Below are positions 22,157-57,688 of a DNA stretch of 64,000 nucleotides, one piece after another. This stretch comes from Podarcis vaucheri. Lineage: Eukaryota. Location of the stretch: assembly GCA_965113315.1 (NCBI GenBank), contig OZ220373.1; one strand, written 5' to 3'. Position 1 is the stretch's first letter. The number at the start of each line of letters is the position of its first letter. The notes beneath the pieces were generated by a model. It was not told the origin of the DNA. It searched no databases and was given only the letters and a program-made list of their open reading frames with translations. Both the position numbers and the translations under genes were made by a program.

Positions 22157-22254
22157 CCCCTCATAGTGAACTTGGCCACGACTAGCCGGGAGCCGGCGGC
22201 GCTGAGCTCGCTCTGGAAGTCCGCGTCGTTGGCGATCACCTTCACCCCGACCAT
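22157..22254 (-). CDS. TXNL1: TXNL1 coding exon 1
   Basis: gccgccaggATGG start at 22254; MVGVKVIANDADFQSELSAAGSRLVVAKFTMRG; donor GG|gtgagt; 98 nt. Confidence 0.97.
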
Positions 22255-23030
22255 CCTGGCGGCGGCAGCAACACGCCCGGTAAGTGCAAAGTCACCGCGG
22301 GAAGAAAAGGAGCGCGGGCGGGGCGGGGCGAGAGGCTGGCCGGCCGCGCCCAGCATGCACCGCTCCCGCGCAGGCGCACACGGCCCCGGCCATCCCTTTC
22401 TTCCGCCTTCCTTCTCCTCCTCTCAGGCACCCTCGGCTGAGAGTTCATCCAGGTTCACGCGCCTAGGGAGAGGGGAGGGGTCAGCGGCTCACACTTCCGG
22501 TTGAAAGACTTAACCAACGGGCGAAAGCCGCCATTGGTCGCGATTCTCTGTTGGGCGCTCTAGGCGATGTCTCGATGCTGAACTCCACATCCACCCTTAA
22601 GGCTCCGCTCACAAATCCATGTTGGGCGCTCTAGGCTTCGACGACTCTATGGTGTAAACCTTCCCCTCTCTCTCCCCTCCCCCCTTACAAACGCACACGA
22701 CGCTGCTTCGTCTTTTGCACTGGGGATAACAAAAAGAGTTCGGGTTTGCGCCGGTAGTAGTGCTTGCGGCGGTGGGAGACTTTTGTTGTGGTTCCACCGC
22801 TATGGGTTTACCCGCTTGACTCCGCCGGCGACATCTTGGAGAAGGGCAAAGTGCGACCTCCGGCTTCGGGGAGGAGCGCTATTGGTTGGCAAGCCTTGTC
22901 GTTTCAGCTTGGTGACCTTTGCGGGCGGAAGTGATTGGCTTTTCAGGGCAGCCGTCATAGTTCAGGGCTCGCGGAAGTGGGGGAAGCATGGGCGGCTGCA
23001 TTGGTTCCGGTTCTGTGCATACCCGGCACC
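22255..23030 (-). promoter_or_regulatory. TXNL1 CpG-island promoter and 5' UTR
   Basis: CpG-rich. GC boxes about 22315-22330; TCT-like pyrimidine tract (minus, 22299-22312); ZNF143/Staf-type CCCAGCATGCACCGC 22349-22363; ETS motifs 22494, 22926, 22971; minus-strand CCAAT at 22533, 22881, 22934, 23000. Confidence 0.8.
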
Positions 23031-25249: not shown

Positions 25250-28200
25250 GTAGGTGCTTCCCTGGGGCGGGGGGCGCAGCAGGACTCTCCCCAGACTCCC
25301 CTTGTCCTCCCCCACTGCTGAGTAATTTTGCTTTTTTGCTGCCTTCCTTCGCAGGTCGACCGAAGCGTCCTTCCTTCCTTAGGGTCTTCTCACCCTCCCT
25401 CTTTATTTTTATTTTTTTTAGTGCTGCTTTCTATTAGTATTGCCTTTGGGTCCTTTCCCCCACCCCACTCTAAGAAGCTCGCGTTGTGTGTGTGGGTTGG
25501 TCCTTTTGGTTTTCAGGACTCAGAGGCAACATCCTCCTATCTTTTCTTAGTTCCCTCTTTTTCAATAAAAAGAAGTAACAGAGGGGCACCCTCTCAACCA
25601 GGCGTCCCTTCTTGCCAACCTCGGCTCCCCCCCCCCCAAACCCACGAGAGGATGCTTGGCAGGCAATGCCCCTCTTGTCAAATCCACCCCACTCACCCAT
25701 TTTGTGCTTATAGCCCCCTTCCTCTCTAGTGTCGCCTATTCTGCCCCTCGTATATTTTTTTGTTTTTGATTGTTATATATCTAAGTGGGATTGCCAGTTG
25801 CTCGGCCTGAGGGGCTTCTAGGCTAGGAAGGGAAATGTCATTTTAAGAATAAATAGAAAAGTCACCAAAAGTCACAGTGTAAGGGGCTGATAAGCTTTTA
25901 GCGGGGGGCCCAGCTCCTTCGTATTCCTGAAACCACTCAAAAAGTGGTCTAAAGTGTGCCATTCCTGCTTTGGCCATTGATGATGGCTGGATTTGCTGTG
26001 GTACACTTTTTGCCCTCTCCTTCAGCAGGAAGGTGCCACCCATATTCCCTCTGTGCCAAGTGCACTGCTGCCCTTCCCTTGACATTGGGGGGCAAGAGTG
26101 CCCCTTTCATAACCTCCAACACATCTTCAGATCCTTCCTTTTAACAATCAACTGCTTTCTGCTTGCTTCTGCCCCCCACCTTGCCTATAATGGCAACTGA
26201 CACCTGTTGCCCAGTCTCCTTTGAGACTGATTTTGCCAGGCCTGTCCTCAGCCCTGGAGTGGAAACTCCTTTATTCTAGCGCCTTAGAATGGCACCGCAT
26301 TGTTTTCTCGTACCATGTGTTGGTGAAAGTGAGGAAGAGCGGGTGACTGCGGAGTACCACAAACAAAACAAACACCTATTATAGAGTTCAACCAGAGTCA
26401 CTGTTATGCCTAGAATACTTCCGGGAAGATACCTCTTCTTTAATGGCTCCTCACAAAACCCTTCTCTCTGGTGGACTGTGACTTGTGACTTGCATCTCCA
26501 CAGCAGGATCTTTTGTTTGTAAATGCTACCTTGGCTCTTTGGTGCCCTGTTGCCCTTGTGGTTTGAAATCCCTTATTCAGAGATGATGGCCACTGAACAT
26601 TTGCTTGGCATGGTCTGGCAGGCTTAGTTGGCCGAGTTTCCACTGCAAGATGAGCAGTGAGTTACTTCATTCTTACTGGTACAAGAAAAAAGCATCTATT
26701 TTCTGTGGGTGATGCAGTTGGGTGGCTGAACTTTCTTGAACTTTCTAGGGCACTGATAGGGTGGCAGACTTTATCAGTACTTTCCAGCTGTTTCTTTTCC
26801 CTGCAAACAATGTGACTCTTACCTCTAGAAAATTGTTGGTTATTTGAAATTTCCCTCACTCCCCAAAGATCAGCTTAAGTGAGTGATAAATAATAAACAA
26901 TTGATACACTTAGAAACTTGTTTTTTGGTAGTTACCTGTCACCTTAAACTTGGCATTCTGGCATTCCCTTTCTCCTTGTTCAAGTGGGTCTGTAGCAGAG
27001 TTTCAACCTACATTGTTACTGAAACCTTTAATCTTATGATTTGAGACCATCATAATGCATTGTAACTTGTTTCTTTACATATTAGCTGTTGATCTCATTA
27101 TGAGACAGACAAATGGGGTGTCTGGAAGAGAGGTATGCAAGGAGCTTGTATGAAAAAGGATAAAATATCAGGGTAAATTACTCTGTGTATGGCTTGAGAG
27201 AGCACAAACATTAGAAATTCAGCAGTTTTATGTTGAAGGTATGTGAGATGCTGTGAAGATGACAGCTTTGTTATTCAGGTGATATAGGAGGAAATCCCAG
27301 GTAGCAGGAAAGTCCTGACAAGACGAAGGTAGGATGGCTCAGGAGGGGATTTAGCAAAGTTTTACAGAAATTGCAAGAGGGACAGAGAGGCATAATGCAT
27401 GCTTCTGGCATTTATGAATAGCTGTTTCATCCATGTCTTCTGTTCTATGGCCTAGCTGCTAGGTGTGTGTAGCCACTATCTACTTCCAAACAGGAGGTGC
27501 ACTTGCACCCCTCAGTAGATTTGTGCAGATCAGTTAGGGATAGTTACCACACCTGTCTGCTGATAAAATAATTAAACTGATGTGTGGGGAGGACCAATTT
27601 GTATTGCTATTAGGGTGCTGGGCTGCTTCCACAGTTCTGTGCCTACTTAATTTCCCCCCTGTTTGCTTCTGCTGTCAAATCAGTGGCTTCTTTAGGAGTG
27701 GGGATATTTGTTTGGGAGGCAGGGATGAGGTCTCTGAACTGAGCTGCGCACCCCTAGTTTAGCAGCTTCTTATTCTCTCCCTATCAAGCCAGCTGGAATT
27801 GGCAAGAAGCAAAATGTGCTGAGAAACTAGCTTGAGTTAATTAACACAAGTGCATTGGAAGAACCTTTTGTTCTATGGCTACTGAATAGTGTGTGATTTA
27901 AATTGTTGCTGTGTAACATCTGAGCATTTTAATCTAAATACAAGTTCATATTTCATACCGCTGAGTTTTGAATTGGTTCAGGTGTTAGTATATAACCTTT
28001 CTGCTATCATGACTGTTACTTAAGTATAGTAAACGCATGGTATAAACATTCAGTTGGTCAATTAGCTAATTTATTTATTATATTTTCAACATCTGTAAGA
28101 TCGCTGTCATTAATACAGGCAGACAATATACATCAAAAGTCGCACTAAGCATAGTGGGGCTTACATCTGTGTAAACATACATAGAATTGCTCTGTAGGTC

Positions 28201-28565
28201 ATTCTTGGAGGAAATGGGATGACAAAGGTGTAATAAACTTCAGATCAATAATATAATCTCTTTGGGAATAGAAGCTTCGGGCAAAGCCTTTAAGTCAGTT
28301 TCTTATAGAACAATGTATTGGTGGCACACCCCAGGACAAATAGATGTAGCACAAATATTTTTGCATGCTTTATTGACAAGAAACCCGTGAATAATCAAGG
28401 TGTAAGGCAGAAGTAGATAAACATGTCACTGTTTAGATTATGATGGGCTACAACTCGCATTATACCTGACTGCTGATGGTACTGGCTGGGGCTGAAGGGA
28501 GCTGATGGCAGCAGTTTTCATGCACCCTTCTGTAAGGTTTCCCAAAATGCCAGTTCCAACCCACA

Positions 28566-28728
28566 CAGTGGCGTAGCGTGGGTTGTCAGCACCTGGGGCA
28601 AGGCAAGTAATTTGCGCCCCCTAACCCGTGGATTTGCACCCCCTGACCCGTGGATTTGCGTACCCTAACCCCCAGATGTTGCGCCCGGTGCGGCCGGCCC
28701 CCCCTGCACCCCCCACGCTACGCCACTG
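28566..28728. mobile_element. Young hAT MITE (163 bp)
   Basis: Perfect 17-bp TIR CAGTGGCGTAGCGTGGG; perfect 8-bp TSD AACCCACA; internal short tandem repeat. Confidence 0.93.
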
Positions 28729-30638
28729 AACCCACAGAATTCAAGCAAAGTTGCAGCTCTCTTGACTCCTGAAGTGCTCAGTTGCATCAGTAGAGAGTTT
28801 GTGGAGAAGAGGCAGAGGATAGTATGTACAGATGGATAGGAAGGTGAATGTGATGGAGGTGTTGTGAGGGTTCAAGGAACAGAGGAGGTGCTGAATCAGT
28901 GCTGCTCATGACATAAGAGCTAGGTGAGCATGATGTATTTCCCAACTGTTAAACCTTGAAATTTCATTGTGTATCCCCCCTCCCAACATAATGTTGATTC
29001 ACCTTTACAAGTGAGAGCACATTTCCAAAAAGTTTGGAAAAACTGTTTCAATTGTGTTGGAGATATTGGGAAACAAGAGCATGCACACACACAACGGAGC
29101 AAAGTACTGATACAAACTGCATATAAAAAAAACCACCCTGACACACAACCTTTAACTGTGTACATATTTCTGCAAACAGCTATTCTATATACATGTTAAC
29201 AGAGCCAACATGGTATATGTAGAGGTTAGAGTGTTGCACTTGAACACAGGAAATCCCACTGAGCTATAAAGCCAACTGTGTGTGCTTGTTGTGCAGTTCA
29301 CAGAGGGGTGGCCTATGACAACCTAGTGATAGGTCAGTGGAGTGTTGCAAGTTGTACTTTCAGGAGTTAGTAATTTCCTTTCACTGCCATGTTTCTGTCT
29401 TTTGGTGAGCAAAAGCCAGTAAATACTGAAGTAATGCTAGACACGAAGAAAAGACTGAGACACTGAGAACTAGTGTGGTAGAATAGCCAGAGTGCTCAGT
29501 TTGAATGGGCCTACCCAGATCCAAATCCTGTCTGAGCCATAAAGCTCATTTGATGTCTTCATCACTTCCTTTCATCCTAGCCTCCGCCACAGAATCTGTA
29601 GTGCAAGAGCATGGCATTGCTGAGCATGCTTACTCTAGTGGACTTCCTCTTGAGGAAGTATGTGTTGAATACAAACTTCAGGGATGGTTATGATGATTAA
29701 TTTTGCCATGGTGAAAAATATCCCTGTGATTCCTTACGGATACAACTCTTTATGTATTAGGGCCATGAAATACAAATCTCTCTGTGTAACGTGTGCCATG
29801 AATATGTGTTTTAAGGTAGTATTCTAGATCCGTTGAGGACCTCTTGAAGAAGCAATGTGAGCTTGCTTTAGAACAGAGATATAACTCAAGATTGTAGGGA
29901 AACTTCCCCTTTTCATTCTTTGGTTAGTAAAACAAATTATGAATGGTATGGGAGCTGTCTTCATGAGCAGAACTTATGATTTTAGAAAACATAAATGATT
30001 ATTTCAAAAAATTATGGATTTGAACTCTGAATTCACAAGTGTGATGAATAATTTGTGTTGTGACAGCTTGAAAGAGTCTCTTTTTTTCGCTTGAAACTAT
30101 GAAGCATGTTTCCAATAGTGTACCTGAATGAGTGTGTGGAGGGAATAATTTTAACAGTAATGTGCTTTTTATAGTAATCTTAAACCAACACGTTGCTTAA
30201 AACGCTGCAGGATAAAAATTCATCTTGGGGATGAATTTTGCAAATATTTGTGTGTGTGTGCCTGTTTTCTTAACAGCAAGTGGAGGTACATGCGTGGGGA
30301 TCCTTGGATCTTGACTGTTTTCACACACTAACACCCCATCCTGTGGAATTATATCCATTATATTTCATCTGCACATTCAGAATGAATGTCAGGAACCAAA
30401 AAGTCGTATTGAAAAATACAACTTTAAAGAAGTCTGGTCCCAAACACGACAACTAGGCATTCCGTTTTGGTGACTGTAACCCTGGTTAAAGGGGGCATTT
30501 GGCACCTAGCTTATATATCAGTTTCTAATGCTGCCTGTGAAAAGGAAGAACAGAAGGAGGGAGGGAGGCAAAGACATAACCAGGGCTTGCTCCAGTTGGA
30601 CTGCCTCCATCCGCCTGGCCAAGTTCATGTTTTATATA

Positions 30639-31128
30639 CCGTATTTTTCTGTGTATAAGATGATGCTTTTTGCTTAAAAAAAACCAGGCAAAATTTGGGT
30701 GCTGTCTTATACACGGATAGGGAATGCAGAGGGGGGACGTGTGATTAATGGCAGCAGCAGGCAGGAGATTGGGCGGGCGATTGGTGGCTGCGGAAAGGCC
30801 TGCTGGTGATTAGCTGTGACTGCAGCAATTGGGCAGGCAGTTGGCGGCTGTGGCAAGGCAGGCAGGTGATTGGCGGCTGAGGCAAGTGGGCATGTGGGCT
30901 GTTGGTGGCGGTGAGCGGGCAGACAATTGGCAGCTGCGGCAAGGTGTGCGATTGGCAGTGGCTGTGGCAAGCGATTGGCAATGGCGGGCAGGTGGGTGAG
31001 CGATTGGCAGAAGTGATCTCCCCCCCCCCAAAAAAACGCTAAACAACTTAATTTCTTAATTTCAGGTTTTTTAAAAATAGGGGTTTTTCTTATACATGGG
31101 GGGCGTTTTATAGCACTTGAAAACTGGG
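30639..31128. mobile_element. Tc2/pogo-like MITE (CCGTATTT type) with internal GC-rich minisatellite
   Basis: TA-CCGTATTTTTC start; GGCAGGTGATTGGCGGCTG-like repeats 30740-31016; right TIR degenerate. Confidence 0.7.
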
Positions 31129-31764
31129 TGCCTTGGCAGAAAGGTGGTCTATAAATGCAATAGATTAATAAATCAGTGCCAGTTATTAACATGGTTCCTT
31201 TTGTCTTTTGCCCCACTCCTCCTCGCATCCTTTGTCCTTTTATATGCCTCTGACATCGCTGAATATATAGTATGGGTTGACCGTACAGTAATGCTGTATG
31301 GAAATCAGAGAGAACAGATTGAACACAATAGACAATATAAAAACCAAAAAGCTGTGCAAAGTGGTGCTGCTATACTTTGCGTGTGTGAATTTTTAATAAA
31401 CTTTTTCAAACGTTTTCACAATAACCTTAAAATCAAATACATTGTTTCGTAAGTTGACTTCCCTGCCTCACCTCCACAGTGTTTTTACTCAAACATTTTC
31501 TACTGCATTATTTCTTTATGTATCACAAAAAGTTTCTCTGTTGCAAATGTTTTGTCATTTTTCTTCTGCTGCTTTTATCTCGAGTCCTGCCCGCGATTTC
31601 ATTTGACTGTAAATTTTTTTAATAGCCCATGAAAGGCCTCCATTCTTCTATGAAAAGTTCATCGTCTCTCAATTTTGCTTTCAGTTTTGCCATTTCTGCA
31701 TTGCTTTCAAAAGCCGCTCCTCCTTTGTTGGAACCTTCCCTTCTTTCCATTTCTGTGCATGTTT

Positions 31765-31867
31765 TGAGATTACAATTCCAATCATCCCTGACCACTGGTC
31801 CTGCTAGCTAGGGATCATGGGAGTTGTAGGCCAAAAACATCTGGAGGGCTGAGGTCGAGGAAGCCTG
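31765..31867. mobile_element. Palindromic hAT (Charlie-like) MITE remnant
   Basis: TACAATTCCAATCATCCCTGACCACTGGTCCTGCTAGCTAGGGATCATGGGAGTTGTAG, shared with 54246-54370. Confidence 0.7.
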
Positions 31868-32134
31868 TTTTAGCTGCTGTTGTCATATGCAAAGTGAGGA
31901 TTTTCTTTGGAACATCTGTCCCTATTACACCTATAAGGAAAGGAAGATGAAGCAAAGGGAGTTAGAACTGTTTACTACCTCATTTCCTCCTAAGGAAGCT
32001 TTGGTTTTGTTGACAAAGGAGTCAACTGGTTTCATTTTCTAAACCAGGGTATCCACTTAGTTTTGGGAACTGCATCAGTCCCCACCACTTCCATATATTC
32101 AGTGAGAAGTTCATGTGAACAGGGGGAAATGTAC

Positions 32135-32354
32135 CCGTATTTTTCGCACCAGACCATAAGACGCACCTAGTTTTTGGAAGAGGAAAACAAGAAAAAAAAA
32201 ATTCTGAATCTCAGAACAGCAAGAGGGATCAATCCCTCTTGCTGTTCTGGCTTCTGTGATAGCTGCACAGCCTGCATTCATTCCATAAGACGCACACACA
32301 TTTCCCCTTACTTTTTAGGAGGGAAAAGTGAGTCTTATAGAGCAAAAAATACGG
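32135..32354. mobile_element. Tc2/pogo-like MITE
   Basis: CCGTATTTTTCGC ... GCAAAAAATACGG-TA; same family as 56283-56522 in the opposite orientation. Confidence 0.85.
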
Positions 32355-33618
32355 TAATTTAACTTGCATCCAAGGTTTCAACTGTGTGCCTTTCTAATGA
32401 AAACAAAGGGAGGCATTTTAATGTTTATTATAAGTTGTATAACTTGCAAAGATCTAAGTTCTTGCATGTTTGGAAAGTATTAAATCCTTCGCAATTTAGT
32501 TTTTCAATTGTTTGAAAAAGATTAAGTTTGCAACTATTGGAAGCCTGAGATACTGCAGGCGGATGAGCCTGCTAGAAGGAAGGCATATGAATGCACAAAT
32601 GAGTTAATGTTTGTGTTTATTGGCACATTATCAGAGTTCTTTCCCTCAGCTGTGTTGAGGGATTACCCTTATAAGTAGTGGCATAGCTAATTTTCCAGGT
32701 CAGTTCAATCTTTGGCCCTCCTGCGGATAATGATAGCCTGATTACTGATCGTTGATGTGGATTGGTCTCCATGGCAACTAGGTCTGAAACTGCCTCCTTA
32801 ATTTCCTAAAAGCCCTCAAACAACCAGGCTCAGAATAGTGATTTGGATTTTTATTTGCAGCACTTTGTCAAAACCAAATAATGTTCAAATCCATTAAATA
32901 CAAGTGCATTGAGTATTATTGCTGTGTGGGCCTTCCGTTTGGCCCTTGTTTTCTCAGCTCCCCCAGCAGAAGTTCCTAACAAATACAGCAAAAAAATAAA
33001 ATAAAATATTTTTTGTCAACATGCATTTCTTCCCAGATAATCTTCTGGTACTTAAAAATTACCAGAGGACTCAACCATTTCCCTCCTAACCTTTTTTGAA
33101 TATAAAGGGCACAGTGGACACAACAATGATCTTCAATAGCGATATAAATGAAGCTGAATGTTTCTGAATCCTCGTGTTACCACCAGAATGGAGCACAATT
33201 GCTGCAAAACCGGCTCTAATCATTTGTCTCCACACCAGCTCATTTGGGCATTGCAGGATTCCAAGCTTAATTCTACAGCTATTGATTTTTCAATACAGTT
33301 TTCTCTCTCTCTTTCTCTCTTTCCATACTTTAATACAAGCCTTTACCTGTAGGAAAATATAAGCAATACTGAGATTTCCTCTCAAATATAAAGCTATAAT
33401 CTTGGATATTATTTATTGTGATGATGGTATTATTGTGTATTTATCCTAATTTCCAAGGATATGACTAGTTGTAGTAGATAACACCATGTGATAAGTGCCC
33501 ATGGAGCTGTGTTGTATGGGGCTTATGTACCAGATTAATTTTACTGTCCTGAATGCCATTTGCACTCTTGTTCTAAAACTTTTATCCCTTGCTTTATGTG
33601 TGTACTTATGGTTCATCA

Positions 33619-33968
33619 AGGGACACGGGTGGCGCTGTGGGTTAAACCACAGAGCCTAGGACTTGCCGATCAGAAGGTCGGCGGTTTGAATCCCCGTGAC
33701 GGGGTGAGCTCCCGTTGCTCGGTCCCTGCTCCTGCCAACCTAGCAGTTCGAAAACATGTCAAAGTGCAAGTAGATAAATAGGTACCACTCTGGCGGGAAG
33801 GTAAACGGCGCTTCCGTGCGCTGCTCTGGTTTGCCAGAAGCGGCTTAGTCATGCTGGCCACATGACCCGGAAGCTATATGCTGGCTCACTTGGCCAGTAA
33901 AGCGAGATGAGCGCCGCAACCCCAGAGTCGGCCACGACTGGACCTAATGGTCAGGGGTCCCTTTACCT
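33619..33968 (+). mobile_element. Full-length Sauria SINE
   Basis: GGGACACGGGTGGCGCTGTGG head, B-box-like GGTTTGAATCC, CCTTTACCTTT tail; 13-bp TSD TTATGGTTCATCA. Confidence 0.95.
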
Positions 33969-34490
33969 TTATGGTTCATCAGTTGAGGTTGATGTGCAGA
34001 TGAGTCCCCTTCCAGCCCCCAAAATACCTTGGCTTGACTCTTGAGGTGCAATGCAGTGGGTGTTCAGATCCTAAAACCTTTATTTGTTGGCTCGTTGGTA
34101 TTAAGGTTGCTATGTGATATACAGTACAGTCCATTAGGATAAACTGCGCTGAACCTTGCATCACGCTTCAAAATGCAGTTTTGAGTCATGGCTTGAGCAC
34201 ACAGGTGTATAATTTAGTCTTCTCTAATCACCACCTAGTGCTTGTTTGCTTTAAACAATTATCACTTAAACAGATTAATAATGAATAAAACTTTAACATT
34301 TATTTTGCCCCCTTGTATGCTGTCAAATTACAGTTTATCTAAGTAGCTTTCAGTGTATTCAGACCTGGTTTTTGCCCTTAATTTCAGCTCATTTAAAAAA
34401 GTGTCAGTTTTGCTCTTCATTCCCTTCCTTTCAACCTTTTGGTATCTAAACTTTCCCATTGGCAGTTACATAGGCCATATGTCACCAGGC

Positions 34491-34636
34491 CAGAACCATA
34501 GAATTGTAGAGTTGGAAGGGACCGCAAGGGTGATGTGGTCCAATCCCCTGCAATGCAGGAATCTTTTGCTCAATGTAGGGCTTGAACCTACAACCCTGAG
34601 ATTCAGAGTTTTATGCTCTAGTGACTGAGCCATCCC
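34491..34636 (-). mobile_element. tRNA-Lys-derived SINE with CR1 3' tail
   Basis: Minus strand GGATGGCTCAGTCACTAGAGCATAAAACTCTGAATCTCAGGGTTGTAGGTTCAAGCCCTACATTGAGCA resembles tRNA-Lys(CTT), followed by CR1 tail CCCTTCCAACTCTACAATTCTATG. Confidence 0.85.
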
Positions 34637-34704
34637 TTGAAGGTGGAAACTAGGATTAATTAGGCACAAAAAATTAGCAAGATGAATGATAAATAGGGGC
34701 TGTA

Positions 34705-35489
34705 CAGTGGTACCTCTAGTTGTGGACACGATCCGTTCTGGGGTGCCGTTCACACCCTGAAAAGTCCGCAACTACAAGTGAAACCCGGAAAATTAGAATA
34801 TCGTGGAAAAGTTCATTTATTTCAGTAATTCAACTTAAAAGGTGAAACTAATAGATGAGATAGACTCATGACATGCAAAGTGAGATATGTCAAGCCTTTA
34901 TTTGTTATAATTGTGATGTTCATGGCGTACAGCTGATGAAAACCCCAAATTAACAACCTCAGAAAATAGAATATTAAATGAAATCAGCAAAACAAGGGCT
35001 GCAAATAGAGCAATATTGGACCTCTGAGAAGTAGAAGCATGCATATGTACTCAGTACTTGGTTTGGGCCCCTTTTGCATCAATTACTGCCTCAATGCCGC
35101 GTGGCATGGATGCTATCAGCCTATGGCACTAGTGAGGTGTTATGGAAAACTAGGAAGCTGAGTACATGTGCATATATGCAAATAAAGGCTTGACATATCT
35201 CGCTTTGCATGTCATGAGTCTATCTCATATATTAGTTTCGCCTTTTAAGTTGAATTACTGTAATAAATTAACGTTTCCACGATATTCTAATTTTCCAAGT
35301 TTCATCTGTAGAGCAGCGGTTCTGCACAAGCACGGAGCACGATAGAGCACTTTTACGCATGTGCAAAGCATGCAGAATGCTTCTGCGCATGCGTGTGTGG
35401 CGAAACCCGGAAATATACACTTTTCGGGTTGCTGCGTTTGCAACCCGAAAATCCGCAACATGAAGCAAACACAACTAGAGGTATGACTG
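34705..35489. mobile_element. pogo/Tigger-like MITE hosting a nested Tc1 element
   Basis: TA-CAGTGGTACCTCTAGTTG ... CAACTAGAGGTATGACTG-TA. Confidence 0.85.
34775..35308 (-). mobile_element. Internally deleted Tc1 transposon
   Basis: About 130-bp TIRs (GAAAATTAGAATATCGTGGAAA...), TA TSD; minus strand 35051-35146 reads SITPH*CHRLIASMPRGIEAVIDAKGAQTKY*, the Tc1 transposase C-terminus. Confidence 0.92.
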
Positions 35490-35726
35490 TATATATATTT
35501 AATATCCCAGGCACTTTGAATCTTTCTGTGAATCTGTTTGGTCCTTTTCCTTCTGGTTCTTGGATTCTTCTTTGCTTGTGGTTCCTAGAGTTGAATGGAG
35601 GGCTGAACAGTTATTTTCTTGTTTTGTTAAAGTCCAAGTTTTATGTACTGCGAATGCATTCCGCAGGTAGGAGGATAACATATGGAATGAGGGACTGGGT
35701 AAAAGCGGCTTATTGGTTTAAAAAAA

Positions 35727-36102
35727 AAAAGGTAAAGTACCCCTGGACGGTTAAGTCCAGTCAAAGGCGACTATGGGGTTGCGGCGCTCATCTCGCTTTC
35801 AGGCCAAGGGAGCCGGCGTTTGTCCACAGACAGCTTTCCGGGTCATGTGGCCAGCAGGACTAAACCACTTCTGGCGCAACAAGACACCGTGACAGAAACC
35901 AGAGCACAAGGAAACACCATTTACCTTCCCGCTGCAGCGGTACCTATTTATCTACTTGCACTGTTGTGCTTTGAAACTGCTAGGTTGGCAGGAGCTGGAA
36001 CAGAGCAACGGGAGCTAACTCTGTTGCGGGGATTCGAACCGCCGAACTTCCGATTGGCAAGCCCAAGAGGCTCAGTGGTTTGCACCACAGCGCCACCCGT
36101 GT
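35727..36102 (-). mobile_element. Sauria SINE
   Basis: AAAGGTAAAGTACCCCTGG tail; conserved core GGTACCTATTTATCTACTTGCA; head CACAGCGCCACCCGTG. Confidence 0.92.
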
Positions 36103-36236
36103 GGATAAAGCGGGAGGTGGTTGTTGTAGGAACTGGGGAGGCAAATGCATCACTAGAGTTTTACTTAGAACAATCCCCCTAACCCTGTGACGTTATATTG
36201 TGACATGAGGATTCAGGGCGGGGCTACTTAGATAAG

Positions 36237-37146
36237 TAATAATAATAATAATAATAATTTATTATTTATACCCCGCCCATCTGGCTGGGTCTCCCCAGCC
36301 ACTCTGGGCGGCTTCCACAGAAACCAAAAAACACTAAAATATCATACATTAAAAGCTTCCCTGAATAGGGCCGCCTTAAGATGTTTTCTGAATGTCAGGT
36401 AGTTTTCCATCACCTTGACATCCGATGGGAGGGCATTCCACAGGGCGGGCGCCACCACCGAAAAGGCCCTCTGCCTGGTTCCCTGTAGCTTCGCTTCTCG
36501 CAATGAGGGAACCGCCAGAAGGCCCTCGGCGCTGGACCTCAGTGTCCGGGCAGAACGATGGGGGTGGAGACGCTCCTTCAGGTATACTGGGCCGAAGTCG
36601 TTTAGGGCTTTAAAGGTCAACACCAACACTTTGAATTGTGCTCGGAAACGTACTGGGAGCCAATGTAGGTCTTTCAAGACCGGTGTTATGTGGTCTCGGC
36701 GGCCGCCCCCAGTCACCAGTCTAGCTGCCGCATTCTGGATTAGTTGTAGTTTCCGAGTCACCTTCAAAGGTAGCCCCACGTAGAGCGCATTGCAGTAGTC
36801 CAAGCGGGAGATAACTAGAGCATGCACCACTCTGGCCAGACAGTCAGCGGGCAAGTAGGGTCTCAGCCTGCGTACCAGGTGGAGTTGGTAGACAGCTGCC
36901 CTGGATACAGAATTGACCTGTGCCTCCATGGACAGCTGTGAGTCCAAAATGACTCCCAGGCTACGCACCTGGTCCTTCAGGGGCACAGTTACCCCATTCA
37001 GGACCAGGGAGTCCTCCACACCAGCCCGCCCCCTGTCCCCCAAAAACAGTACTTCTGTCTTGTCAGGATTCAACTTCAATCCATTAGCCGCCATCCATCC
37101 TCCAACCGCCTCCAGGCACTCACACAGGACCTTCACCGCCTTCACT
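36237..37146 (-). mobile_element. 5'-truncated L2-clade LINE (ORF2 C-terminus, 3' UTR, (TTA)n tail)
   Basis: ORF 36342-37145: WMAANGLKLNPDKTE...SRLDYCNALY...QNAAARLV...HITPVLKDLHWLPV...LWNALP. Confidence 0.95.
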
Positions 37147-37493
37147 TGAAATCTCAGAGGTTGGACTCTCTAGGGCCAGTTGAAGCTTCTACTTACTTGA
37201 ATGGTGTTCCCAGGTGTACCCTTTCCCCCTCTTCCCATATAAAGTGAATAGCTGCCATTCATTCACTTGAGGGTGACATTTCCCTGATATCTCAAGCCCT
37301 GCTGAAGGTATTCACATTGGAGTGCTGTGTCTCTTTAGCACAGAGAAATGTTGCTCACTCCCCCTAATCCTGGCAATCTGCAAGAATGATAGGCATTGTA
37401 TTAGTTATATATATAATATATATATAGGAACTTTTATAGGAACTCAAACACCAGATTCTGCTCTGTTCCAGTAACAAGAAGCTGAAAGCACCA

Positions 37494-37531
37494 GCCTGAA
37501 GATGACGAGTGAGACCTCGTCGAAACGTCGC
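37494..37531 (+). ncRNA. Minimal type I hammerhead ribozyme motif, copy 1
   Basis: CTGAAGA-T-GACGAG[TGAGAC]CTCGTC-GAAA-CG-TC; 6-bp stem II; palindromic ACGT in place of stem III; stem I only 2 bp. Confidence 0.7.
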
Positions 37532-37582
37532 CCAGACACCCCGACTCTTACACGGGAAGACACCCGAAGACACCAAAACCTG

Positions 37583-37584
<2 letters not shown>

Positions 37585-37614
<30 letters not shown>
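37585..37614. repeat. (AT)15 microsatellite at the centre of the inverted repeat
   Basis: Visible run between the inverted pLTR arms. Confidence 0.95.
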
Positions 37615-37617
<3 letters not shown>

Positions 37618-37666
37618 GGTTTTGGTGTCTTCGGGTGTCTTCCCGTGTAAGAGTCGGGGTGTCTGT

Positions 37667-37704
37667 GCGACGTTTCGACGAGGTCTCACTCGTCATCTTC
37701 AGGC
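37667..37704 (-). ncRNA. Minimal type I hammerhead ribozyme motif, copy 2
   Basis: Reverse complement of the copy 1 core; core identical. Confidence 0.7.
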
Positions 37705-37876
37705 TGGTGCTTTCGGCTTCTTGTTACTGGAACAGAAGTTTCTCGTAGGTTCTTGTCAGCTGGAAGGTTTCCTCCCCGTAGAGGTGAGATATTTGCTTTC
37801 GTAGATTTTCACGGGTACAGGAATGCAGGTTTTGGTGTCTTCGGGTGTCTTCCCGTGTAAGAGTCGGGGTGTCTGG

Positions 37877-37914
37877 GCGACGTTTCGACGAGGTCTCACT
37901 CGTCATCTTCAGGC
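37877..37914 (-). ncRNA. Minimal type I hammerhead ribozyme motif, copy 3
   Basis: Identical core, exactly 210 nt from copy 2. Confidence 0.7.
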
Positions 37915-38225
37915 TGGTGCTTTCGGCTTCTTGTTACTGGAACAGAGCAGAATCTGGTGTTTGAGTTTCTATAAATACTGTTGAGGGGTGTGGTGTATAG
38001 CCTCCAACGTTCTGGGCAAAGAGGAAGTTCCTAGATTAGTGTGCCTTTTCTTCTTTTGTTCCTTAATTACTTGAGGGATATCTTGAGTGATTTCATGTGT
38101 GATATTCTGAATAGCACTGGGTGGGTCATTAAGTGTAGATTAGTTGCTAAAGCTTTCGTGTCTTGACCTCTTGACCTCAGAAAAACTCTTCACAAGCTCA
38201 AGCCTGAAGATGACGAGTGAGACCA

Positions 38226-38226
38226 C

Positions 38227-38272
<46 letters not shown>
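38226..38272. repeat. (AT)n(GT)n microsatellite
   Basis: Visible run abutting the truncated fourth hammerhead copy (38204-38224). Confidence 0.9.
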
Positions 38273-38274
<2 letters not shown>

Positions 38275-39128
38275 GCCAGCTGAACAAAAAGCTTTTCACT
38301 TGCAGGGGCTTGATGTGGACAGAAATGTGTTTATATGACACTGATAGTAATTAGACATTGGTGAGAGGTCAAGGGGCAAGACCCACATAGCATTTCCAGG
38401 AAAAAGGGATGTTCTTAGTTACCTGGTTTGCTTATAATAAACAATAATTTTCTTTCCTCTTTGTTGTATAACCATTAACCTTCCTTTATCAAAATTTTCC
38501 TTAAAACCATTTCCCCCCGCCCTGCTTTAGGGAGAGACAAATTGCCCTCATTCAAGAAGTAAGCAACCTATCGACTCGTTTTGGCGTAGTGCTCACAGTT
38601 GTAGTTCCTGTTGTCATATTTAGTGAGAGAATTAAGTAAGGGAGTGCACACTGATTGTGTAAATGAGAAACAAAGCATAGGAAATTCTCATTTGGAAGTA
38701 AACTCTTTGTGCTTTAAGTCCAGGAGAGTTAGTATCTTTTAGGTGGCATTGTTCTGCTAATTGAAATTAATTGAGCTAACTTAGTCATGTTTATTAATTT
38801 CAGTGGGTCTTCTCTTAAGTTGAACCTAGTTGTACACACTTTCGTTTAGAGTGATCATGACTGTGTTATTTTGTGTCTGTGGAAATTTACAGAGATAACT
38901 ATAAATAGAAACAATGAAAAGACTAATTTGCTGCTGAAAAAAGCTTGGAAGGCTTAAAGCTTTTTACAGACTCATTGGGAGTTGGATTGAGTTTTCTTTC
39001 AGCAGAACAGAGTGTTGGGGCCTTCTGAAGGTCTGAGAAAGTGATTTCTTAATGATATATTTTCAGGTTCTCCAGGCGGAGGGTTGGGGATCAGCACCAG
39101 TCCTGCAGAAAATATGTGCTTCAGAGTA

Positions 39129-39381
39129 CAGTGGTGCCCCGCAAGACGAATGTCTCGCAAGACGAAAAATTCGCTAGACGAAAGGGTTTTCCGTTTTTGT
39201 GTTGCTTTGCTAGACGAATTTCCCTATGGGCTTGCTTCGCAAGACGAAAACGTCTTGCGCTTTTTTTTTAAAGCCACTTGAAGAGGCGCAGTTGCGACGG
39301 ACCGTGCTTCGCAAGACGAAAAACATCGCAAGACGAAAAGACTCGCGGAACGAATTGTTTTCGTCTTGCAAGGCACCACTG
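39129..39381. mobile_element. pogo/Tigger-like MITE
   Basis: TA-CAGTGGTGCCCCGCAAGACGAA ... TTCGTCTTGCAAGGCACCACTG-TA; repeated GCAAGACGAA motifs. Confidence 0.9.
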
Positions 39382-40953
39382 TATAGTTATTCATAGCCCG
39401 AAAGCTTCAGGACAGTTTGTTAGCAGATTAATATGTTTGTGACTGTACTTTTCCATCATTGATGTGAAAATATTGATTTTTTTTCACTGAGATATATTTG
39501 GTATTCTAAATGTACTGTTAAAGAAGCCTGCACTGTTCCAACCGACCAGCCCTATCCTCTGTCAAAATGAGCCTGTACTTCTTGAAAATGAAGATAGTAC
39601 TAAAAGCGTTCAGATCCCGCGCTAAAAAAACAAAAGGAAACAGGTAGTTGTAGAAACAACATTCCTTCTTGGACTAGATTTAATATTTCCTTTCTGAAAG
39701 CTTGGTGTTGGTTGGTTTTTATGTAGATGTTTATAGCAGCTTATTGGTCCTGTTCATTATGGTATTCCATAATTTTGGGGAATTTTGTGCAATTCTATGC
39801 CGAAATGTGTCTGATAACTTCCATGTATCCTGAATTCTACATGGACAGATATAATGAAGTTTGCAATGCTGTATGAATGAAGGAAGAGTGATATTAAATT
39901 CATTACCTTAAATGTGTTTTGGGAAAGTCGCAGAAGGGCAGTATTTTAATTTTTTTGAAAGCTGAATATATTGATGTTTGCCTCTTGTTTTAAAGAAGTA
40001 ATCTGTTTTTGATGAATATTTATTGTAATTTTATTAGGCAGAAATAAATAAATAAATTGAGGAAATGTGTGCCTTTTTCAGTTGTACTCAGTGCTGCAGT
40101 AGTGCATAGATATCTTGAGCACCTAAAATAGGGTGCTATGAAATTAGAAATAAGTTCTGTTCTGTGCAGGTCTAGTACCTTAAGCGTATGGCGTTTTATT
40201 CTGTACAAATAATACCTGCAGATCATCATTCTGGGACCATTGCCCACTTACGGTATAATACTCTACATATCTCCTCAGATTTGAGTCCTATGTAAGTGAA
40301 TATACTGTATAATTGCAGCCTTGAAGCCGATTCTTGTTTTGTGCGTTTTGCCCTGCTCTCTGTCCAGATTGTGTGGTTCTTTGTATGTGATTGGTTTAAA
40401 CATGTTTTATGCCAAAGGGAAGATGTGTAGTTTAGATAACAGAGGCTGATGTAAACAGAAACTGTTCAGAGGACTGAAATAAATTGGCAAGCTTTGAATA
40501 AGCTATATTCAAAATTTATTGACTTTAAACACTATCAGAGCAGTTGCAGCACAGCACATGAAAGACACACAAAACTTTTTGTATTGGAGAAGGAAGAAAA
40601 CATGGCCATTTTGAAGCAGAAAATAATTTTGGTAGTCCAGCTAGTCCACCAACTTAAGTAACAAAAATTCCCTTCAGCATGCTGTTGGATATTTGTCTTC
40701 CGGCTCAAGACATTTGCAGGTCTTGTCTGAATTACTTCACTGAGAGGCTGAGGTATTGCAGTGTGCTTTGGTGCGATTAACAAACCCTGTTCTTGCAAAT
40801 TTTAGTCCAGCTGCCAATAACACTAACAAATAAATGGCTTCAGGTGACCAGAAATCTTGGAAGGTGGTTTAGCATGATAAATTTTGGGAGTCTGATTTGT
40901 ATGTTGGGTCAGGGCGTGTGAGGGTTAGGAAAAGGACCTAGATTGTCAAAGGG

Positions 40954-41124
40954 CAGGGCCGGCCCTCCAGTGAGGCAAGTTGAGGCAGCTGCCTTGGGGG
41001 ACAGAAACCCCAGAGGCAGCACCTGCTGCATCACCCAAGTATGTGAGGTTTTGGCGGGTGATGGGTGGTGGGGCAGCACCTTCCCGTTTGTCCTCAGGTG
41101 GCGAAATGGGATGGGCCGCCCCTG
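40954..41124. mobile_element. hAT-like MITE, degenerate
   Basis: CAGGGCCGGCCC ... GGGCCGCCCCTG inverted ends; TSD poorly preserved. Confidence 0.55.
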
Positions 41125-41309
41125 TCAGGACTCAGAAGGCGAAGCCTTTGGCAGTCTGGCCAAATCTGTCTGAGGACTGAGGTGAAAGTGAAGGCTGGGG
41201 AGGCAGTGGGATAGGTGAAGACGGGGAAGGTTTTCAGGGCCAGAGAACACACAGGCAAATGATAGCTGGGGAGGGGAAATTGATGGAAAGGTAGGGATTG
41301 GGTAGGAAC

Positions 41310-42016
41310 CAGTGCCGGATTTACGTATAAGCTAGACAAGCTATAGCTTAGGGCCCCACTCTGTTGGGGGCCCCCCAAAAAATTAAAGAAAAAACAACTG
41401 GGTGTACATTTCCAAAATATAAGATAAAAAACAAATAAAATAAAACCTACATGCAGCAACAGTGTTTTGTGTTGTGTAGGCTGCTATGATGTAAGTCATG
41501 AGTCCTGCCTGCTCCCTAAAATACCACTGGTTAGCTCATTTCTATATACAGTCATACCTCGGGTTACAGATGCTTCAGGTTGCATTTTTTCGGGTTACGG
41601 TCCCGCTGAAACCCGGAAGTACCGGAACAGGTTACTTCTGGGTTTTGGGGGCGTGCATGTGCAGAAGCACTAAATTGTGCTTTGCGCATGCGCCGAAGCG
41701 CCAAATTGCAACTCCCGTGTGCGCAGATGTGTCGCTGCGGGTTGCGAACGCTGTGGGTTGCGAACGTGCATCCCACACAGATCACGTTCGCAACCCAAAC
41801 GTCCACTGTATAGGGTGCCTGCATTCTCCATGGACTGGTTGCATGGCAACATGCACAAATGGCTTCAGATACCTATTAGGTCCCTAAATTACCATATAGC
41901 ATACATTCAACACAAAAAACAGCGACAATTTGTTGTTGACAAAGGACAGCTAGACATATAAAGGGCCCCATTAAGTTCAGTAGCGTAGCACCTCATCAAA
42001 CCTAAATCCGGCCCTG
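41310..42016. mobile_element. hAT non-autonomous element with nested MITE
   Basis: TIR CAGTGCCGGATTTA / TAAATCCGGCCCTG; perfect 8-bp TSD GTAGGAAC. Confidence 0.9.
41549..41808. mobile_element. pogo/Tigger-like MITE (nested)
   Basis: TA-CAGTCATACCTCGGGTT ... AACCCAAACGTCCACTG-TA. Confidence 0.85.
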
Positions 42017-43512
42017 GTAGGAACCAGTTGCAGTTTGAGCACGGCCAAGAGCCAGCAAATGTTCTTGGGCACCAGGAAGCTTGTGGCTTTTGATAGGGAG
42101 AAGGACGGCTACATATTTGTCTGTGGCAGATGATCCTGGTGGCATGGTCAGTTATGACAGACAGGGTCATATCTGATAGTGCAGCCTGCCCAAAGCAATA
42201 GGTACGACGCTGTGATATAAGTCAAATTTGTATTGACTTGTACAATGTGTGTTGATCTACTTGGATGTCCTGTGCCCTTATATAATAATTGTTGGCTGCA
42301 TTAAGAATTACTCTGTGTAATGATTTAGAGTAAGAGGGACCATTGTGGTGTTAATCTTAAATAATGAAATAATCTTAAAATCGGGAGGGTGGAAGCTGCT
42401 TCGAAGGTCACATTTTGCTGTGTAATTTTCCTATGGCAGCACAGATTAAGTTTTTTTAAAAGGTTTTTTTATGGCATACCAAATTAGCTGTTTACCACTG
42501 AAGTGATGATGCATTGAAGGGTGAAATAATAGCCAGCTGTTGTCTCTCTTCCTGAAGCACAGGCTCTGTGTGTACTGCAAAAAACCCAGAGAAAATCACA
42601 AAAAGGGAGGCCCATAATTGCCCCACAAACTTAAAGTACAAATGCCAATATTGCAAGACATCACTTACCTCCTACTTCCTATGACTATTTTTTACTTAAT
42701 GGTAAGAAAACCATTTTTAAAATAGTGTACAGACTTTTGTCAAATAGAATCCAAATACTTGTTTTTTTAAAAAGCTTCAGAAAGCATTCAGTTGTAACAG
42801 ATGTAACAAAAAACCAGTCTATGTGTATAGGTTCATTTTTTTGAAATTGTTTTTGTTTCATATCCTGAAGATTTATTTTTAATTTTTACCTCTATATTTG
42901 CCTGCATCTGTCTTTGATTTTAGAAAGCAAACTCTGCCATGGATGCATGACTTCCTCTCTACAAATGCAGTGTGTACAGTTGTATTGGTCTGTATCTATG
43001 GCTCAGTCACAGTCTTAGTGTGTTGTGCAAATGAGGCCTCTGTGTATGCTAAGTGTCGTTTGGAGAAAGAAACTGAACATCATCTTACTTGACTCGAGAA
43101 CTTCTGAAATATTTATTTCCCAATGATGATTTCTCATGGGCCACAGCTGATAATAGACAACATGCACTTTCTTTTCCCTAAATGACTGGTGGAGAAGCAA
43201 GGCAGCAGTGCATTAACACACAAGTTTCTTTAATTAAATATTGAAGAACCCTTCATTACAAACTCAATGTTGAGTATTCCACTGCCCCTCTCCGGGTAAC
43301 CTTAACTCATTTGGAATTTTGCTGGGTGAATAAAAAAGTTAAAGAGCTTTCAAACAGGTTTTTTTGTGTGTGTATTTTTGGTGGCACATGCAATGGTATT
43401 GAATTGAGATGCGTTTCTGTAGAACGCTCTTTGATGTTTAGATGCATCACATATCTTAACTCAATACTAACAAAATTAGTTGGGTTATTCTTTACTTTTG
43501 GAATCGAAATAA

Positions 43513-43749
<237 letters not shown>

Positions 43750-44588
43750 TAACTGTGCACTATACGATGTCTTTCACAATGCCTAGGTTTGTTTAAATGT
43801 AATTAATGCCCTGTTTTGCAGAAACACAATTTAAACACATTTCTGAACATTTATAATCAGATTTGAGTGTGTGTCTGGTAACCTACAGATAAGGCATAGT
43901 TACGGTATGCATGCTTCTTCCAAAGCGAAACCTTGTTGCTTGAGCTGATGCATAACAATCAATATATATTATTGATATTCATAGGGTTGCTTTTGTAGGA
44001 GAGAGTGTTGATTTTTTTTATCATTAGCATGGAAAATCAATGAATTCTGCTGGAAAGCGGCTCTGTTGGGTTCTCCCTTCCCCCTGACCTTTTGGAGGTC
44101 AGCCTGCTAAATCAATTTAACATGAATAACTAATGCAGACGCTGAACCTGGGAATGCATTGTCTCTTGTAAACAATTCTGTTTGTAAAACTGCACTCCTT
44201 ATCCGCTTGTGTTTTTTTTGGTTTGTGGTATAGTTAGGTGGTGGTGGTATTTGCAGTAAGCCTTTAAAGATTGTGGAGGCTTGAATGCCAAATAAATAAA
44301 CTAGAAGCTGAAGTTCACCTCTTCTGTATGCCACGCCATGTTCTTTGTTCTCTTTATGAGGGTGAGCTTTCAAAGCTAATTGCATGTCTATTGCACATAC
44401 ATAGAAAATGACAAGAAGCAATGGAACTTTTAGTTGTTTGAATGATTATTGGTAGCTTAAACAAGCAATCTGCTCTGTGAAGTTCCAGTAACTTTTAAAA
44501 TAAAACATTTTTCTACCAATCGTAGCCTTATGATGTTAGATTAGAAACGCACATAGCAGCTGATTTGGCCAAGGTAACACCGCTTGCA

Positions 44589-44956
44589 AGGGACGCGGGT
44601 GGCGCTGTGGGCTAAAGCCTCAACGCCTAGGGCTTGCCGATCGAAAGGTCGGCGGTTCGAATCCCCGCGGCGGGGTGCGCTCCCGCTGCTCGGTCCCAGC
44701 GCCTGCCCACCTAGCAGTTCGAAAGCACCCCCGGGGGCAAGTAGATAAATAGGTACCGCTTACCAGCGGGAAGGTAAACGGCGTTCCGTGTGCGGCTCTG
44801 GCTCGCCAGAGCAGCGTTGTCACGCTGGCCACGTGACCCGGAAGTGTCCCCGGACAGCGCTGGCCCCTGGCCAATAAATGTGAGATGGGCGCACAAACCC
44901 CAGAATCTGTCAAGACTGGCCCGTTCGGGCAGGGGTACCTTTACCTTTACCTTTTT
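44589..44956 (+). mobile_element. Full-length young Sauria SINE
   Basis: Intact CpGs, B box GGTTCGAATCC, (ACCTTT)n tail; perfect 14-bp TSD TAACACCGCTTGCA. Confidence 0.95.
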
Positions 44957-51512: not shown

Positions 51513-51943
51513 TTATTATTTATACCCCACCCATCTGGCTGGGTTTCCCCAGCCACTCTGGGTGGCTTCCAATAAAACACTAAAATACAATAACCTATTA
51601 AACATTAAAAACTTCCCTGAACAGGGCTGCCTTCAGATGACTTCTAAATGTCAGGTAGTTGTTTATCTCTTTGACATCTGGTGGGAGGGTGTTCCACAGG
51701 GTAGGTGCCACTACCGAGAAGGCCCTCTGCCTGCTTCCCTGTAGCTTCACTTCTTGCAATGAGGGAACCGCCAGAATGAGGGAACCGCTGGACCTCAGTG
51801 TCCAGGCAGAACGATGGGGGTGGAGACGCTCCTTCAGGTATACTGGAGCGAGCCCATTTAGGGCTTTAAAGGTCAGTACCAACACTTTGAATTGTGCTCG
51901 GAAACGTACTGGGAGCCAGTGTAGTTCTTTCAAGACCGGTGAA
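51472..51943 (-). mobile_element. 5'-truncated L2 LINE
   Basis: ORF 51598-51957 PVLKELHWLPVRFRAQFKVL...REVFNV; same family as 36237-37146. Confidence 0.93.
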
Positions 51944-52531
51944 TGAAAGTTAGCCATCCCTACTTTAGTAGAATTACTAAGATCCCCAATATGACCTTTG
52001 CTTTCCCAGGTTTTTTTTCCTTACAAAAAGGAAAAGGGGAAAGAATTGCTTCTGGTATGGATTATACAATATTTGCAGGCCTTTGTCTCCTATGTAGAGA
52101 GTTCCTCTTGTACCTTCTCTGATGGCTTTCAGACACAAAGCTAAAACATTCATTTTCCACCAGGCTTCTGACCCAATGAGCCGAAAAGTTTCACAAATCC
52201 CTTTATTTATGTCTCTCCATTGACTGTGACCTTTTTTTATCTAGTGTTTTTAAGATAATTTGTATCTTAAAGATGTGTGCTGTCTTGGGCAGTTTGCCTT
52301 TAAATGGAAAGATGGGATATAGATCTTTTAATAAACAAAATATTTCTTTTAGTTACTAGTAAGATCAGCTGGAGTCAATTACAGTTCATTCTATATTTAG
52401 GGAATGCGTTTATAATTTGTTCCCTTTGTATCTAAAAAGTACAGGGAGTTGCTGAGTTCTCAACTATCCAACTACAGGACAGAATTTATGATACAGTGAT
52501 GGGTTTTTTGTTATGTGATTATTTTCTTTAG

Positions 52532-57400: not shown

Positions 57401-57688
<288 letters not shown>

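Follow-up and report, generated by a model that had tools for sequence, protein, structure and literature searches.

Amniotes have conserved intronic hammerhead ribozymes, HH9 and HH10. In metazoan Penelope-like elements (PLEs), minimal hammerhead ribozymes (min-HHRs) were described, which combine a type I core with an extra nucleotide between A9 and G10.1, a G10.1-C11.1 pair, a long stem II, a stem I of usually 4-5 bp and a palindromic minimal helix III, and which are located in the pseudo-LTRs, where close neighbours on opposite strands occur (Cervera and de la Pena, 2014, PMC4209133). They were reported from fish Poseidon and Neptune elements as well as from frog, turtle and snakes. In Schistosoma, single copies show no cleavage and dimers or trimers have a low activity (PMC4209133), and a review agrees on the very low activity of min-HHRs (PMC6765202).

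In the Poseidon element PAc of Anolis carolinensis, the ORF begins at stem II of the hammerhead and the cut site follows 26 nt on. Its reverse transcriptase (RT) starts inside the ORF at approximately +111-118, the targets are AT-rich, and the hammerhead shows no cleavage without protein (Frangieh et al., 2024, PMC11167929). Partial tandems, inverted 5′-truncated copies and a 30-40-bp tail were described for such PLEs (PMC8557442). Furthermore, non-LTR retrozymes consist of type I hammerhead repeats from Penelope pseudo-LTRs, and 42-44% of their Xenopus copies overlap introns (bioRxiv 10.64898/2026.07.22.740005). Finally, more than 40,000 editing sites are known from lizard Penelope, where inverted copies in one pre-mRNA form double-stranded RNA (dsRNA) that is edited by ADAR (Porath et al., 2017, PMC5625713).

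The cassette analyzed here lies in the window, the whole stretch of 64,000 nucleotides, and adds a further intronic copy to a known class, the min-HHRs in Penelope ends. PLE-end min-HHRs, including those of reptiles and close opposite-strand pairs, were already published in 2014 (PMC4209133), and the heavy editing of lizard Penelope in 2017 (PMC5625713). With the metazoan PLE min-HHRs the cassette shares the type I core, the extra nucleotide, the G10.1-C11.1 pair, the long stem II, the palindromic minimal helix III, the location in pseudo-LTRs and the close pairs on opposite strands. Unlike the usual form, stem I has 2 bp, as it does in Drosophila virilis; the sequence of the window's family is absent from the discussion in excerpts of that paper (PMC4209133).

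Like in PAc, the ORF begins in the ribozyme, with the predicted cut site 28 nt (PAc: 26 nt) after its start, one family end lies at +118 (PAc RT start: +111-118), and the optional tail and AT-rich targets recur. Unlike PAc, the locus comprises only truncated ends without RT or endonuclease, and a by-eye comparison of the sequence downstream of the cut site with Fig. S1 of PMC11167929 points to another family. The inverted copies in one pre-mRNA resemble the hyper-edited lizard Penelope of Porath et al. (2017), compared to which edited positions were here mapped onto the hammerhead nucleotides A14 and A15.1. The type I hammerhead repeats from Penelope pseudo-LTRs are shared with the retrozymes; however, instead of a regular tandem there is one partial tandem with unequal units and mixed orientation. 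HH9 and HH10 have in common with the cassette that a hammerhead motif lies in an intron of an amniote gene, but the latter has no Rfam hammerhead match and, rather than being one conserved locus, belongs to a young repeat with many copies and a minimal fold.

We consider it very likely that the cassette consists of young, 5′-truncated ends of a high-copy PLE, probably Poseidon, in (TA)n upstream of the first coding exon of WDR7, with the hammerheads as standard cargo, and that the sole complete sense copy, which is predicted to be locked in a 123-bp duplex, probably undergoes ADAR editing instead of cutting the host RNA.

Hammerhead cores and layout of the cassette

Three identical 34-nt minimal hammerhead cores and a fourth partial copy, as reported in the preliminary description, were found in the window (Table 1). 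Each complete copy shows the order CUGAAGA, an extra U, a 6-bp stem II with a 6-nt loop, GAAA, CG and UC, and thereby the type I order CUGANGA ... GAAA ... UH. In copy 1, U37503 is the extra nucleotide, G37504-C37521 is the G10.1-C11.1 pair and A15.1-C-G-U16.1 at 37525-37528 (ACGU) forms the palindromic minimal helix III, so the classification as minimal type I hammerhead holds. The six Watson-Crick pairs of stem II form in local folds of all three copies. Stem I of copy 1 comprises the Watson-Crick pairs C37495-G37530 and G37494-C37531 with mismatches beyond, next to C17 at 37529. Such a stem I of 2 bp, which had been noted as a caveat before, was confirmed in every copy, whereas 4-5 bp are typical for min-HHRs. 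The core of copy 4 begins at 38204 (+) and breaks off at 38224 within the stem II hairpin; GAAA, helix III and the cleavage site are missing.

Table 1. Features of the cassette and of the intron containing it, in positions of the window.
Feature	Position	Strand	Basis or remark
Putative WDR7 first intron	25250..43571	+	donor inferred; acceptor before first conserved coding exon
Remnant of the (TA)n target on the left; its last 10 nt duplicate the 5′ junction of the element	37406..37432	.	sequence
Copy 1: 5′-truncated pseudo-LTR and first 83 nt of the ORF, WDR7-sense (core 37496-37529)	37433..37584	+	ends at family +84
Copy 1 minimal hammerhead including 2-bp stem I	37494..37531	+	core and fold
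Copy 1 positions, 5′ half	C3 37496, A9 37502, bulged U 37503, stem II 37504-37509/37516-37521	+	core and fold
Copy 1 positions, 3′ half	A14 37524, A15.1 37525, U16.1 37528, C17 37529	+	core and fold
Central (TA)n microsatellite, abutted from both sides by the 3′ ends of copies 1 and 2	37585..37613	.	
Copy 2: 5′-truncated unit (core 37702-37669), 123-bp inverted repeat with copy 1	37614..37736	-	
ORF continuation of copy 3 (to +170)	37737..37823	-	translation P0001
Optional 34-nt tail within the ORF continuation of copy 3	37789-37822	-	family ends 37789 and 37823, then (AT)n
Copy 3 (core 37912-37879); ATG at 37906 (A9-U-G10.1) opens the 57-aa ORF start	37824..37975	-	
Upstream part of the element's terminal region, same high-copy family	37976..38174	-	summed contig depth, X1 and X3
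Upstream sequence of the element in inverted orientation, 5′ flank of copy 4	38176..38202	+	X5/X23 joint, loose ends
Copy 4 stub: 5′ core half, stem II 5′ strand and loop	38203..38224	+	sequence
Right (TA)n(TG)n microsatellite flank	38225..38272	.	sequence

A descriptor relaxed to ≥6 bp in stem II and ≥2 bp in stem I matched exactly these three cores in the 64-kb window, compared with a mean of 0.01 in dinucleotide-shuffled windows (3 of 300 shuffles with any match); when stem II was loosened to ≥4 bp, the shuffled mean was 0.083 (23/300 with a match). As duplicates of a single unit, the three cores represent one observation. The hammerhead search that had been suggested for the locus was thus positive with the descriptor but negative with the Rfam models: no hammerhead family was among the 32 matches at E≤1 in 35000-41000, and the whole window gave 0 matches at the gathering score. 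A reading of the cassette as microRNA was rejected, as the Rfam matches at E≤1 are mostly microRNA models which score the long hairpin, all of them below gathering.

The arms 37433-37584 (152 nt) and 37824-37975 are 99% complementary, and 37462-37584 and 37614-37736 are 98% complementary. Copy 2 is the reverse complement of copy 1 and follows 29 nt downstream on the WDR7-sense transcript. The term "array" used earlier does not fit, since the units are not arranged head-to-tail and show the orientations +, -, - and, for the stub, +.

The unit 37737-38224 (488 nt) was compared with four of 24 listed sequencing runs, namely the DNA-like runs X1, X3 and X5 and the RNA run X23, which was chosen for its species label in common with X5 (organism D), the run search itself having listed no RNA run that contains the unit. 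Over 37976-38174 the summed contig depth is as high as over the ribozyme (X1, X3). An opposite-strand joint 38174 -> 38195 (X5, X23) and, behind 38174, loose ends (X1, X3, X5) were found, which identify 38176-38202 as inverted upstream sequence of the element and the flank of copy 4 as chimeric. The truncation of copy 4 was correctly recognized, whereas its "different 5′ flank" is the element's own. For the same reason, copy 4 as a member of a second subfamily with a better stem I was rejected, its flank being an inversion junction.

No common DNA variant of the family affects the core or stem II among the variants listed. Position 1.3 of stem I varies, with the base of copy 2 at 70% of the depth in X1 and 58% in X3, and the listed family variants at 37875 and 37876 leave stem I no longer. 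Copy 2 carries the family-majority base at this position 1.3 and copy 1 does so at 37440; the copies thus carry distinct alleles that occur in the family. Together with copy ends that fall on the true end point of the family and a window without any N, this speaks against the head-to-head layout around the central (TA)n being an assembly artefact of a young repeat. Such an artefact is extremely unlikely, although complex insertions of the PLE type trouble short-read assembly (PMC8557442) and no contig among those listed spans the unit.

Identity of the element and origin of the insertions

The pieces of the cassette are the ends (pseudo-LTR and ORF start) of a young, high-copy PLE. The Penelope-like origin assumed in the preliminary description was substantiated by the ORF start inside the ribozyme, by homologues with RT and GIY-YIG, and by family ends against (AT)n. 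The ATG is built from A9, the extra U and G10.1, and opens a frame of 57 codons in copy 3 (translation P0001). The homology search with P0001 yielded one protein among six candidates, P0002, which is 77% identical, and the search with P0002 yielded 255 representatives at E≤0.001 (150 listed). Of the eight listed homologues with at least 700 aa, seven contain RVT_1, YVDD-type and C-terminal GIY-YIG motifs. RT and GIY-YIG, which Penelope/Poseidon elements carry in a single ORF with GIY-YIG at its C-terminus, are features of homologues reached via P0002, the truncated locus itself carrying neither. By inspection, the seven long homologues have no Cys cluster within 45 residues before GIY and two Cys inside GIY-YIG. 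As the absence of a CX2-5CxxC finger before GIY and two Cys inside GIY-YIG are the pattern of Penelope/Poseidon (PMC8557442), the long homologues show the Poseidon pattern, and Poseidon is the likely clade of the element, two homology steps away from the locus. P0001 and P0002 had no match in Pfam, and the ESM Atlas gave no usable match.

On the 488-nt unit, 5574 contigs were placed in X1, 1403 in X3 and 19074 in X5. At least three organisms thus contain the family dispersed and in high copy number; summed depth does not equal copy number. Family copies stop at 37823 (+84 from the ATG) and at 37789 (+118), followed by (AT)n; among the loose ends listed, those with (AT)n occur at 37789 in all four runs and at 37823 in three of them. 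These fixed ends provide independent genomic support for the internal RT start of PAc, which was shown in vitro. The two ends are 34 nt apart, in agreement with an optional tail of 30-40 nt between two 3′ ends. Further PLE traits found here are 5′-truncated partial tandems with inverted copies, and a targeting of AT-rich or microsatellite sequence, visible in three (TA)n tracts at the cassette and in the (AT)n loose ends of the runs.

The copies differ by only 1-2 nt and, judged by this sequence divergence, are young. For their insertion, it can be assumed that the endonuclease of the element nicked a (TA)n tract upstream of the first coding exon of WDR7 and that the RT started at the fixed internal site of the family (+84 from the ATG) twice, once per strand. 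This would have resulted in copy 1 (+) and the partial tandem of copies 3 and 2 (-), the 3′ ends of which face one (TA)n, and template jumps may have generated the junction 37736/37737 and the inverted chimeric stub 38176-38224. That copies 1 and 2 end at +84 facing the same 29-nt (TA)n, with (TA)n also in the outer flanks, fits two insertions, one per strand, in an order suggested by the geometry only.

Within the family, which is young, no covariation of stem II was seen. An N-terminal pattern like M-x(4-6)-[ASTP]-K-R is present in eight proteins, namely P0001, P0002 and six more (P0066 by pattern only), each of which has one register that allows five stem II pairs, compared with 97 of 2702 background peptides; a ninth pattern match, P0083, is incompatible with five pairs. 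The pattern scan gave 0 loci in viral contigs and at least 103 loci (92 distinct rows) in metagenome contigs, which belong to other, decayed families. Their 90 distinct stem II sequences pair at 0.70 versus 0.643 in shuffled ones (maximum 0.694 in 2000); stem I is also short there, with C-G at position 2 versus G-C in the window's family. Taken from related, decayed copies, this is a weak indication of cross-family stem II covariation in the expected direction.

Predicted folding, cleavage and editing of the RNA

On the sense strand, 37433-37736 is predicted to form one duplex (-269 kcal/mol, z -37.5), in which copy 1 pairs with copy 2 across 123 bp and the whole motif is buried. Forcing the hammerhead helices onto the full sense fold costs 69-73 kcal/mol, and the probability of stem II is 0. 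In the growing transcript, stem II has a probability of 0.76-0.995 until about 37670 and is lost by 37680-37690, the probability of stem I is <0.001 at each transcript length tried, and before copy 2 the hammerhead-compatible fold lies 5.6-7.7 kcal/mol above the minimum. These energies are predictions from nearest-neighbour folding, which ignores tertiary contacts and proteins. The sense strand contains no second complete core, which a cis dimer would need; copy 4 lacks the 3′ core half. RNA polymerase II would thus make copy 1 with a stem II that folds for about 150 nt of further synthesis and a stem I that hardly forms; copy 2 would then emerge and zip the motif into dsRNA, to be removed with the intron. 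Because copy 1 is predicted to pair with its inverted neighbour, it is likely edited rather than cutting the WDR7 RNA. At usual polymerase II speeds, the interval before copy 2 lasts seconds.

The preliminary description had proposed a potential cleavage of the host pre-mRNA after C37529, and this claim is opposed by the duplex of copies 1 and 2, which is 69 kcal/mol more stable once copy 2 is synthesized, by the missing partner in cis on the sense strand and by the 2-bp stem I. Furthermore, the interval before copy 2 is short, published rates are very low (PMC4209133, PMC6765202), and anole RNA-seq showed no read ends at the site (PMC11167929). We therefore regard it as very unlikely that copy 1 cuts the WDR7 pre-mRNA co-transcriptionally before copy 2 appears, be it via the element's protein or as a trans dimer, even though the core is intact and invariant across the family in DNA (among the variants listed), the predicted stability of stem II over about 150 nt leaves a short folding window, the PAc hammerhead is assisted by protein in vitro (PMC11167929), and transcripts of the family from both strands occur in a relative (X23). 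A larger significance of the locus would arise only if cleavage of host RNA were shown. According to the literature, such ribozymes act weakly on the RNA of the element itself, either as dimers or assisted by its protein, which by analogy may apply here.

The active unit could also lie on the opposite strand, where copies 3 and 2 form a partial tandem, 210 nt apart, and might act as a double hammerhead on an antisense or element-driven, retrozyme-like transcript. Such a fold needs no pseudoknots and would have a helix III of 4 bp (ACGU/ACGU), and ribozyme-sense reads are about twice as frequent as antisense reads in X23, if the library is of the usual stranded type. The double hammerhead of copies 3 and 2 on the - strand, however, lies 16.4 kcal/mol above the minimum alone and 82.3 kcal/mol with copy 1, the unit is not a regular tandem array, and the reads of X23 are family-wide, with no RNA from the cassette locus among them, so that this possibility is rated as quite improbable.

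From X23 (organism D), of which about 12% was covered, 304 reads were placed. Of the changed places, 68 of 85 in this RNA run and 12 of 22 in the DNA run X5 are A>G or T>C. The counts by read direction were T>C in 33/90 versus 0/46 at 37883 (A15.1), 34/90 versus 0/46 at 37884 (A14) and 20/82 versus 0/50 at 37908 (N7), and A>G in 0/88 versus 21/47 at 37891; they refer to 11 sites picked from the variants listed, with both mates of a pair counted. Fixed differences occur in both read directions and many other changes in one only, which is the pattern of A-to-I editing on both strands. At A14 and A15.1, the A-to-I-type change affects about 37% of the ribozyme-sense reads, where the counts pool all family copies of organism D, with many fixed differences from the window, and the X5 DNA comes from another individual. 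Editing-type changes at these catalytic nucleotides suggest how hosts neutralise such ribozymes in pre-mRNA. A narrow literature search for hammerhead, A-to-I editing and retrotransposon returned no paper on core editing, which is insufficient for calling this detail unpublished.

One could imagine a switch gated by the Penelope protein, in which copy 1 would cut the nascent WDR7 RNA in the seconds before copy 2 if the protein is present, and would otherwise be disarmed by the inverted copy and ADAR editing of A14 and A15.1. We regard this as very unlikely; if true, inverted insertion plus core editing would be a general off-switch, and ribozymes could persist by the thousands on the sense strand of lizard introns.

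No pile-up of read ends was seen in X23, which is uninformative at 304 reads of a fragmented library. Behind 37915, two bases before the core begins, ten RNA reads of this run leave the element and all continue into the same foreign sequence. They would represent an expressed copy truncated at stem I, for which the host sequence would supply the stem I partner.

The host gene WDR7 and its surroundings

The assignment of the host gene to WDR7 on the + strand, with copy 1 in sense, was verified by the exon 57461-57682, for which 595 proteins were obtained at E≤1e-20 (120 listed), with matches of 92-100% to named WDR7 proteins, and by residue 1 of WDR7, which maps to 43585 (+) with the ATG 43585 in the first conserved coding exon. 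Of the 15 best overall matches, 14 are named proteins, 13 of them from squamates, and the presumed lizard SINE sequence nearby suggests a lizard rather than a snake. A WDR7 coding match upstream of the cassette was not found in the window, and WDR7 is not named among the matches listed from the PDB sequence search. A donor-like site at 25249/25250 in a GC-rich stretch likely marks, from its sequence, the end of a non-coding first exon of WDR7. The earlier placement in "intron 1" is therefore correct with regard to the position upstream of the first coding exon, and likely with regard to the intron number, which depends on this putative exon.

The cassette might also act on WDR7 without cleavage, as a long intronic hairpin or cryptic exon which alters splicing or isoform choice. 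This would be in line with the near-perfect duplex of 123-152 bp, the acceptor 37471 and the donor-like sites 37509, 37647, 37784 and 37857 on the sense strand, and a possible alternative WDR7 exon 1.3 kb downstream. However, the predicted duplex contains or borders the splice-like sites, X23 (304 reads, other species) gave no spliced joints over the unit and thus no sign of an intron within the pseudo-LTR, and inverted pairs of this type are common in introns; an effect of this kind is therefore very unlikely. The acceptor-like site at 37471 (+) is pyrimidine-rich and located within the sense copy 1.

A short frame at 39567-39644 (+) ends at a donor-like site; over 26 aa, its translation shares 69% identity with a WDR7 isoform of Anolis sagrei (P0184), in the N-terminal extension of that protein. 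The frame is possibly an alternative exon or alternative first exon of WDR7, and transcripts starting there would exclude the cassette.

Additionally, the region 39127-39383 resembles a MITE, with terminal inverted repeats of 24 nt (92%) that enclose six repeats of 18 nt. Upstream at ~22150-22420 (-), the first coding exon of a thioredoxin-like gene, which we take to be TXNL1, lies head to head with WDR7, with two GC-rich stretches in between and no Pfam match. Two 3′ LINE ORF fragments, presumably L2/CR1-like, are located at 36342-37169 (-) and 51598-52020 (-), the first being open over 275 codons without a Pfam match. Finally, the SINE copies at ~35840-36100 and ~44550-44950 seem to us to resemble the lizard Sauria SINE.
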